DNA of 64,000 nucleotides from an uncultured Acidobacteriota bacterium (lineage in GTDB: Bacteria > Acidobacteriota > UBA6911). The stretch spans positions 576,001 through 640,000 of the forward strand of contig CAWEJX010000008.1 of assembly GCA_963809485.1 (NCBI GenBank), in the 5' to 3' direction. Of the stretch, positions 58,995 through 59,304 are shown piece by piece (the stretch's first letter is position 1; every line of letters begins with the position of its first letter). Under the pieces are notes generated by a model. That model was not told the DNA's origin. It saw nothing but the letters and a program-made list of their open reading frames with translations, and made no database searches. A program made the translations under genes and the position numbers.

Positions 58995-59069
58995 TAATAA
59001 TTTCACTGTTATTACAACCTTCTCGCGTATACAATACGCCCGCTTTTACTGAAACAAGGAGGTGCGGCA

Positions 59070-59198
59070 ATGTCGAATGGCACCGGCCGCTACGCTAAAA
59101 GAACCTGAACCTTAGTCCCGGCTCGCGGGGCTGCGAGCCAACCTTCAGGATCCCCGGAGCGTCAGCGGTTTTTGGAAATCAATTCACCCTCGATGTAA
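59070..59198 (+). CDS. Candidate leader peptide: 12 aa to UGA, or 42 aa if UGA13 is read as selenocysteine
   Basis: AAGGAGGT SD, ATG 59070, MSNGTGRYAKRT-TGA(59106-59108)-TLVPARGAASQPSGSPERQRFLEINSPSM-TAA. Confidence 0.6.
59120..59139 (+). promoter_or_regulatory. SECIS-like hairpin
   Basis: GGCTCGCG-GGGC-TGCGAGCC stem-loop beginning 11 nt after the in-frame TGA, with a G-rich apical loop. Confidence 0.6.
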
Positions 59199-59304
59199 CC
59201 CCCTTCCGAATCTCCCGTTGCCCTCCGGATCCCGAAACTAATTCATTCGCCCGCCGCGCGGACGTGTGTTTGCGCGCGCTGTGCGAACCGGAGGAAATGC
59301 AATG
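59144..59304 (+). promoter_or_regulatory. Alternative-structure translational switch (anti-SD / anti-anti-SD)
   Basis: 59217-59228 pairs either with 59154-59166 or with SD/AUG 59288-59303. Confidence 0.6.

Follow-up and report, generated by a model that had tools for sequence, protein, structure and literature searches.

The window analysed here is a stretch of 64,000 nucleotides (nt) from an uncultured bacterium of the Acidobacteriota (assembly GCA_963809485.1, contig CAWEJX010000008.1, positions 576,001 to 640,000 of the forward strand). It contains two adjacent genes, encoding a double-cubane-cluster anaerobic reductase of 426 amino acids (NF040772, 471.9 bits against a cut-off of 350; PF06050) and an activator ATPase of the acyl-CoA dehydratase activase type (TIGR00241, 207.5 bits; PF01869), so that the leader of about 250 nt preceding them belongs to a two-gene operon. 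Within this leader a short upstream open reading frame (uORF) ends in UGA, and is followed by a hairpin resembling the selenocysteine insertion sequence (SECIS) of bacteria and then by segments that could hide or expose the Shine-Dalgarno sequence (SD) of the reductase gene. Judged from sequence, this is probably a leader-peptide attenuator, whose sensor would be a selenocysteine (Sec) UGA codon read with the SECIS-like hairpin. The features of the locus are as follows.

59028..59035 (+), -10-like box TATACAAT of a putative promoter, from which the transcript would start at about 59042
59056..59063 (+), SD of the uORF, AAGGAGGT; GGAGG is invariant in 10 clade-A leaders
59070..59108 (+), uORF including the UGA at 59106-59108, the proposed Sec sensor codon
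59085..59096 (+), element 0, the 3′ half of the uORF, GGCCGCTACGCT; its partner in the minimum-energy fold is 59158-59170 (helix P1)
59104..59149 (+), SECIS-like element, with lower stem CCUGAA (59104-59109)/UUCAGG (59144-59149), apex 59120-59139 and loop GGGC
59109..59198 (+), read-through extension of 29 codons, then TAA 59196-59198
59148..59177 (+), element 1, the anti-anti-SD (GGAUcc-CCGGAG-cgu-CAGCGG...), within the read-through frame
59204..59232 (+), element 2, the anti-SD arm, with core CCGUUGCCCUCCGG at 59215-59228
59246..59287 (+), internal hairpin joining elements 2 and 3 in the minimum-energy fold
59288..59304 (+), element 3, the SD (CCGGAGG) and AUG of the double-cubane gene
59302..60582 (+), double-cubane-cluster anaerobic reductase gene
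60591..61340 (+), activator ATPase gene

The SD AAGGAGGT lies 6 nt 5′ of the uORF start codon, ATG 59070. The uORF has 12 sense codons (MSNGTGRYAKRT) before the TGA. A spacer of exactly 11 nt (59109-59119) separates the TGA from a hairpin of 8 base pairs (bp), GGCTCGCG-GGGC-TGCGAGCC, at 59120-59139, about 160 nt 5′ of the regulated start codon. If the TGA is read through, the frame continues to 42 codons in all, ending at TAA 59196-59198. An earlier reading of the window (the original prediction) had proposed a Sec-sensing translational attenuator with this SD, uORF, TGA, hairpin and read-through frame, and all of them are borne out by the sequence and its translation. A TAnAAT box, usually following TGT or TAT, is found at an equal distance 5′ of the uORF SD in the listed clade-A leaders. 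A sigma-70 promoter scan of the leader region recognised no full promoter, and a terminator scan of the same region gave three weak terminator-like sites, none of which is convincing.

The genome that carries the leader has the complete machinery for Sec incorporation, i.e. selA, selB (above cut-off), selC (the tRNA-Sec gene, 70.6 bits) and selD, and selB was found in five of five relatives tested. It also has at least eight selenoprotein genes. Its own selD (L136, C8:80982-81905) has an in-frame TGA, with a hairpin of loop GGC beginning 13 nt after it. Seven genes of the UGSC family (PF24696), encoding proteins of about 560-650 amino acids (L139-L145; contigs C1, C4, C20 and C21), each have an in-frame TGA followed after 11 nt by a hairpin, with stems of 5-8 bp as called by the scan and loops of GGTC, CGTGA, GTT or GGTCA. 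The 11-nt spacing is thus present in seven of the eight genes examined, and the hairpin of the window (11 nt, 8 bp, GGGC) is within the range of these SECIS elements, so that the proposal stands in both its requirement for Sec machinery and its comparison with the organism's own selenoprotein genes. De novo scans of the genome for an in-frame TGA with a hairpin returned 572 and 718 candidates, most of them false, and were the only source of eight long picks; seven of these were confirmed by Pfam as the UGSC genes, while L146 (C4:341623-343668) has the same layout and no Pfam match.

Orthologous leaders were collected from 60 related genomes, from a metagenome scan (78 loci, 46-98% identity) and from a sample of 401 genomes of the phylum, eight of which have an orthologue. 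There were 56 loci with at least 250 nt of upstream sequence, 51 of them distinct. We applied a rule requiring an SD, ATG or GTG, 6-25 codons, a stop codon, and 8-15 nt further on a hairpin with G in the first two loop positions. In the 51 upstream regions the rule was satisfied 20 times with TGA as the stop codon, once with TAA and never with TAG; shuffled sequences satisfied it in 0.3-1.0% of 2040 cases, and the reverse complements gave 0/1/0. Relaxing the requirement for an SD gave TGA 30, TAA 3 and TAG 1, with 4-6% for shuffles and 2/4/5 for reverse complements. The homologous uORFs therefore do not end freely in UAA or UAG, as expected if UGA is the sensor codon. Five further leaders fail the stem rule while the arrangement is visible by eye (L055, L057, L065/L069, L072 and L076), and when such regions are included the leader is present in about 35 of the 51 distinct regions. 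Six more loci came from other families within the phylum; of these L149 and L151 carry the leader, two lie behind a transporter gene and two are without it. In 32 compiled leaders the first stop is always TGA, and the second is TGA in 19, TAG in seven and TAA in six. Note that the compiled leaders were selected for TGA, so that the unbiased figure for stop identity is 20:1:0.

Several individual loci deserve comment. L156 (G005:C59:8048-11104, minus strand) has a complete clade-A leader, scoring 44.9 bits with the covariance model R1 described below, but the gene behind it breaks off at a stop codon after only about 30 codons; the locus has decayed, and the leader has outlived the double-cubane gene. 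Three loci of the same genus (L020-L022, in G022, G023 and G004; 58-59% identity) lack the Sec leader and have in common a conserved promoter-like block, TTGACAAATCGGAAAA...TTTTAAT, upstream, and it appears that the double-cubane gene is under different control within that genus. The orthologue of G001 (L018, G001:C28, 81% identical) has an in-frame TGA that was considered as a Sec site and rejected, as it aligns to Leu (ISGLDS); it probably reflects a pseudogene or an error in the assembly. A 20-base leader pattern used in an exact scan of genome contigs gave five matches in unrelated phyla, about the number expected by chance, and was not used.

The hairpin was analysed in an alignment of 29 leaders, extending from TGA-9 to TGA+47, in which the only invariant triplet is the TGA. 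The 8-bp hairpin is paired in 85.3% of 232 cells, compared with 30-46% in slid controls. Seven of the eight pairs change on both sides (41 cells), giving a covariation score that was reached by none of 500 shuffles. A conserved UGA and covariation were among the features for which the original prediction had suggested that leaders be aligned. The offset of the hairpin from the TGA is 8-14 nt. A G in the loop is conserved to at least 90%, and 16 of the 29 leaders have a loop that begins GGT.

In bacterial SECIS elements the apical loop sits 16-37 nt from the UGA and starts with G (GU), and the E. coli type has a bulged U. The record of E. coli K-12 fdhF reads TGA, 11 nt and then GGTTGCA-GGTC-TGCACC, confirming the 11-nt spacing cited in the original prediction. 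Nine of the leaders have the core GCAGGTCTGC / GCAGGUCUGC, identical to the fdhF apex. In the window the spacer is likewise 11 nt, and the loop begins 19 nt after the UGA. A covariance model built from these leaders (R1) placed the SECIS of E. coli fdhF third among its matches in 164 kb of sequence (15.1 bits, E 0.067), and found a match at the in-frame TGA of a molybdopterin oxidoreductase gene in the relative G021 (23.7 bits). In 61 relatives its four strongest matches (36-48.7 bits) are all leaders of the double-cubane gene, the decayed copy in G005 included. These comparisons support the assignment of the leader hairpins to a class that matches genuine SECIS elements; we infer that SelB would bind and that Sec would be inserted at the UGA.

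The second-best match of R1 lies inside the coding region of selB (L001:2807-2863, in G000:C20; 19.1 bits, E 0.0046), where a hairpin GGCGC-AGGTAG-GCGCC follows an out-of-frame TGA. This could be a chance match, or a SelB-binding site on the mRNA of SelB itself.

A SECIS-like hairpin in a 5′ leader might also act as a SelB operator, whereby SelB bound to the hairpin would alter the folding of the RNA or the translation of the uORF, the UGA being incidental. There is a precedent in the autoregulation of selAB by SelB in E. coli, which is mentioned in PMC8124441. We regard this as quite unlikely for the present leaders. The UGA is invariant, at a fixed distance from the hairpin and always in frame with an SD-led start codon, and the position of the second stop of the read-through frame is constrained (see below); moreover the hairpin does not cover the regulated start, from which it is separated by about 160 nt.

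Alternatively the leader could sense something other than Sec, such as the activity of release factor 2 (RF2), a small molecule acting on the nascent peptide in the manner of tnaC, or a protein, the hairpin then being merely structural. One indication of this comes from clade E (L090, L089, L122, L099 and L100) together with L151 (G362), where the uORF ends G-F-T-UGA and the codons for these amino acids vary synonymously only (GGT/GGC, TTC/TTT and ACC/ACT; six of six), which argues for a constraint on the peptide. In clade E the second stop is right against the hairpin, the extension of L151 being outside this comparison. This suggests that clade E and L151 have a minimal variant of the sensor that could depend on the peptide. 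In addition the loop of the window is not GGUC, and the scan of its own genome, given below, shows that such hairpins arise by chance. Yet nine leaders match the fdhF SECIS apex base for base at the SECIS spacing, the model R1 picks up genuine Sec sites, the peptide differs between clades, and a constrained read-through frame would be pointless if the UGA always terminated translation. We consider a different signal improbable as the general explanation. Variation in the sensor extends to L072, which has a second in-frame UGA after four codons and its hairpin at 28 nt, and to L076 and L077, which have an additional hairpin between the UGA and the SECIS-like one.

The frame that follows the UGA is constrained in a manner that bears directly on whether it is read. 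In all 32 leaders an in-frame second stop is found 3-42 codons after the UGA; the other two frames run for 1-498 codons. The second stop occurs at 29-39 codons in most leaders of clades A and B, and the frame is open for at least 18 codons in 26 of the 32 leaders, the window having 29. By one count the in-frame stop precedes the anti-SD in all 32, and in L084 it overlaps the anti-SD-like motif. A stop that is held in position would be unexplained in a frame that is never read, so the constraint is indirect evidence that ribosomes do pass the UGA into the read-through frame.

An open frame behind a UGA and a SECIS-like hairpin could alternatively encode a small selenoprotein of about 42 amino acids that shares a transcript with the double-cubane genes and functions as a protein. 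The frame is open for 29-42 codons in most leaders, and according to the Haft preprint (10.1101/2022.07.06.499078) 955 of 970 double-cubane proteins co-occur with selD. The form of the extension argues the other way. In 10 close relatives the conserved block GGAGCGT that follows the hairpin is read in frames 2, 0 and 1 in four, five and one leaders, respectively, and 1-2 nt insertions or deletions are tolerated; in L061 the frame stops after 18 codons. The extension therefore seems to be kept as RNA and not as peptide, which argues against a functional selenopeptide. The uORF and read-through peptides of separate clades are also unrelated, the peptide not being conserved on both sides of the Sec as in a selenoprotein gene, and six leaders extend for only 3-4 codons. 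We think it very unlikely that the leader is a gene for such a protein.

The leader beyond the hairpin contains alternative helices, for which the statistics given here come from the 10 leaders of clade A. In the minimum-energy fold of the full-length leader the anti-SD (59215-59228) is paired with the SD and AUG of the double-cubane gene (59288-59303) around the internal hairpin 59246-59287, so that the full-length RNA prefers helices 0:1 and 2:3 together with the SECIS-like element, and the SD is hidden. When the transcript is cut at 59240, the minimum-energy fold instead has helix 1:2 (approximately 59148-59177 with 59204-59232), with the TAA in its loop. Masking of 59135-59165, as by a ribosome that has read through, abolishes helix 1:2. 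Helix 0:1 (59085-59096 with 59158-59170) is paired in 83.1% of cells, with slid controls at 25-53%, helix 1:2 (59148-59177 with 59204-59232) in 69.8%, and helix 2:3 (element 2 with the SD and AUG) in 85.6%. By eye there is a three-way change at alignment columns 115, 191 and 257, which are C/G/C in the window, L094 and L018, and U/A/U in the other seven leaders. When columns 191 and 257 are counted as a pair, six are AU, three are GC and one is unpaired; column 115 is outside the tested 1:2 helix, in which columns 113 and 191 pair in three of 10. A search by RNAduplex for the three switch elements in 26 leaders was too noisy in this GC-rich sequence, and was rejected. The long hairpin enclosing the TAA and the pairing of the anti-SD with the SD had both been foreseen, and the alternative helices of the proposed switch are conserved. 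What had been missed is that the 3′ half of the uORF also takes part, as a fourth element that pairs with a segment after the hairpin and makes the design that of a four-segment, trp-like attenuator.

We propose that the leader would function in the following way. Ribosomes recruited by the strong SD would translate the uORF through its 12 sense codons as far as the UGA. If SelB-GTP-Sec-tRNA(Sec) is bound to the hairpin 11 nt downstream, Sec would be inserted at the UGA, and the ribosome would run a further 29 codons across element 1 and stop at 59196, just before element 2. In the absence of that complex RF2 would end the uORF at the UGA. The position of the ribosome would be converted into expression by four mutually exclusive segments, i.e. 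the 3′ half of the uORF (0), the anti-anti-SD (1), the anti-SD (2) and the SD/AUG (3). If there is no read-through, helix 1:2 would form as the RNA is made, leaving the SD free and the operon on. A ribosome that has read through would cover element 1 or sit in the loop of 1:2, leading to the thermodynamically favoured 2:3, with the operon off.

Not all leaders use the same device downstream of the sensor. Instead of a pure anti-SD helix, the three leaders of clade D (L113, L101 and L098) have a strong terminator hairpin with a U-run, which also buries the SD. The 5′ arm of the terminator can pair with a conserved segment that immediately precedes the read-through stop, a pairing that was seen by eye and is absent from the computed folds. 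Different platforms behind one sensor are expected for a modular cis-regulator.

The same sensor could operate with the opposite sign. In most leaders the second stop lies about 4-24 nt before a CU-rich anti-SD-like motif, and in L084 it overlaps the motif, so that a ribosome terminating there could loosen helix 2:3; the operon would then be on in cells able to make selenoproteins. By default the full-length fold leaves the operon off, so that an activating event would be needed, and masking the second stop raises the accessibility of the SD in L055 (0.26 to 0.40), L109 (0.27 to 0.51) and L080 (0.23 to 0.40). The Haft preprint also suggests that double-cubane enzymes may serve pathways with obligatory selenium-dependent steps. 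Yet a frame running through the anti-SD would activate best, and the in-frame stop precedes the anti-SD in 32 of 32 leaders; in the window it is 16 nt short of the anti-SD helix. Activation would also leave the conserved element 1 within the read-through frame without a role, and in clade D it is the candidate antiterminator (paired by eye), and not the core stem of the terminator, that is covered at the read-through stop. Equilibrium accessibility of the SD under ribosome masks, calculated in 23 leaders, does not discriminate between the polarities. Control of opposite sign is thus a minority possibility, contained within the probability that we give to the Sec sensor and not additional to it. 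We prefer repression by read-through because it accounts for element 1, for the stop before the anti-SD and for the geometry of clade D; if the leader is a Sec-decoding regulator, we would lean modestly to repression over activation.

A number of observations weigh against the attenuator as proposed. The fold of the leader is only modestly better than that of shuffled sequences (z = -2.41; two of 200 shuffles as good), and in its own genome SD-led short open frames that end in TGA are not enriched for a following hairpin (four distinct cases of 598) relative to those ending in TAA (four of 237) or TAG (five of 236). Taken alone, the one sequence therefore lacks significance, and it is the conservation in orthologous leaders that makes the arrangement more than chance. 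Those leaders are related sequences and not independent, so that the counts exceed the number of independent observations. Sixteen of the 51 orthologous upstream regions lack the leader, some of them lying directly behind another gene, and the 115-nt yjiN-yjiM region upstream of E. coli K-12 yjiM (L148) has no uORF-UGA-hairpin arrangement. With regard to the hairpin, the loop GGGC of the window has the G and lacks both the U and the bulged U of E. coli, as the original prediction had cautioned. A scan of 58800-59500 with Rfam (E <= 10) found no SECIS family and no riboswitch, giving only weak and implausible microRNA and snoRNA matches, mostly on the adjacent palindromic repeat; the bacterial SECIS models of Rfam span few lineages. 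The model R1 misses the UGSC and selD SECIS elements of the same genome, so that the likeness is to the fdhF-type apex and not to all SECIS elements. In the frame beyond the UGA, the six leaders in which it closes after 3-4 codons are those of clade E and L072.

The remaining difficulties concern the switch. The covariation score of helix 1:2 is weak, being reached by 57 of 500 shuffles, and one evolutionary event may account for the whole of the three-way covariation. Full-length folds at equilibrium always keep the SD paired, the SD-free state being less favourable by +8 to +12.7 kcal/mol; masks at the positions of ribosomes hardly shift the accessibility of the SD in the 23 leaders, and do so in both directions. 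The switch would therefore have to be kinetic. In L084, L085, L081 and L080 the second stop abuts or overlaps the anti-SD, which fits activation equally well.

Taking these points together with the evidence in favour, we consider it likely that the leader is a Sec-decoding cis-regulator. The Sec sensor is supported by conservation, by covariation, by likeness to SECIS elements and by the constraint on the read-through frame; the binding of SelB, the insertion of Sec, a response to selenium and the sign of control are predictions. The central proposal of the original prediction, a Sec-sensing attenuator, thus finds support in conservation and SECIS likeness, and its polarity, with read-through turning the operon off, is tentatively preferred as the better fit to the helices.

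The surroundings of the operon are as follows. On the 5′ side is a gene for a penicillin-binding-protein-like product and then a palindromic repeat element, and on the 3′ side, on the opposite strand, a gene for a HerA-like ATPase. The repeat is an intergenic palindrome resembling repetitive extragenic palindromic (REP) elements, with the unit GCGTATGTCAGCGT arranged as inverted pairs that flank AT-rich cores. The window has 59 matches to the unit (two mismatches or fewer) where 0.27 would be expected, at 58912-58991, 61340-61441, 63845-63944, 51633-52285 and other sites. One copy lies between the end of the upstream gene and the putative promoter of the leader, and there is a tandem array of five copies at 51.6-52.3 kb. 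An open frame of 412 codons is antisense to the double-cubane gene (59179-60417, minus strand); this is most likely an artefact of high G+C content.

To our knowledge the physiological substrate of the double-cubane [8Fe-9S] reductases is not known, and the way in which bacteria sense their selenium status is largely so. The cases of regulation by selenium that we know of are the autoregulation of SelB in E. coli, polarity in Treponema fdhFSec, and protein regulators in methanogens. A leader of the kind proposed here would, if correct, be a direct cis-acting read-out of the capacity of Sec-tRNA and SelB. It would also provide the first regulatory link, beyond co-occurrence, between double-cubane enzymes and selenium, implying a role for these enzymes either in the supply of selenium or as a selenium-sparing back-up. 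In the Haft preprint the presence of 955 of 970 strong NF040772 proteins in selD-containing genomes is left without an explanation, and a word search of that text finds no mention of regulation, leader or riboswitch. A selenium-responsive leader before the double-cubane genes makes the link behind this co-occurrence testable. Since related leaders share the exact apex of the fdhF SECIS, tests with ordinary reporters in E. coli should be feasible.

Full-text searches of the literature, which left most subscription journals outside their coverage, revealed no description of a natural Sec-uORF attenuator, in keeping with the original prediction. The mBio paper PMC3892789 states that attenuators responding to the incorporation of a rare amino acid had been engineered and had not been reported in nature. 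We lean, by somewhat more than an even chance, to the view that the present leaders are a natural recoded-stop attenuator, in which a uORF-UGA-SECIS unit would report the capacity for Sec decoding and switch the double-cubane operon, in several lineages and on either an anti-SD or a terminator platform.

The predicted design is that of leader-peptide attenuation with a new type of sensor. In attenuators of the trpL, hisL and pheL type, reportedly treated by Merino and Yanofsky in 2005, the position of the ribosome on the leader reading frame selects the fold of the RNA. The present leader is like these in having a short 5′ reading frame led by an SD, exclusive helices 0:1, 1:2 and 2:3 with the first segment inside the reading frame, and a ribosome at the sensor codon that would decide the fold, acting on a platform that sequesters the SD or, in clade D, terminates transcription. 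It differs in its sensor. The trp-type leaders have a run of sense codons, whereas here there is a single recoded stop that would need an RNA element in cis and a dedicated elongation factor. When the codon is not decoded, the ribosome stalls in the former, and here a release factor would end translation. Nor are the regulated genes biosynthetic for the amino acid that would be sensed.

The sensor itself corresponds to the SECIS of E. coli fdhF in its UGA, 11-nt spacer and apical hairpin, and in a frame that runs on through the hairpin without a stop; the UGA forms part of the lower stem in the window. The fdhF element is within the gene of an enzyme, whereas that of the leader is in a 12-codon uORF, and the copy in the window has the loop GGGC without the bulged U. 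The selAB element of E. coli offers a parallel, in that the Sec machinery regulates through a SECIS-type hairpin of the 5′ leader, as we propose here. The selAB element is not known to have a uORF or a UGA, and SelB binds it near the start site to control the sel genes themselves. By contrast, the present hairpin is about 160 nt upstream, is associated with an invariant in-frame UGA in an SD-led uORF, and would control a double-cubane reductase.

Two further systems share a regulated event at UGA. In tnaC an RF2-dependent arrest of the nascent peptide at a UGA stop senses free tryptophan, and is not known to involve a SECIS-like hairpin. Our leader resembles it in having a short reading frame that ends in UGA and a termination step that would be regulated, and clade E has signs of selection on the C-terminus of the peptide. 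Unlike tnaC, the peptides vary between clades and it is the hairpin that is conserved. In Treponema primitia fdhFSec, according to PMC3892789, control by selenium occurs through translational uncoupling at the Sec codon. There too a Sec UGA that is not decoded alters downstream expression in cis. In T. primitia the UGA is inside the gene of the selenoenzyme and exerts polarity on its own transcript, whereas in the leader described here a dedicated uORF with switch helices would control a separate gene that contains no Sec.

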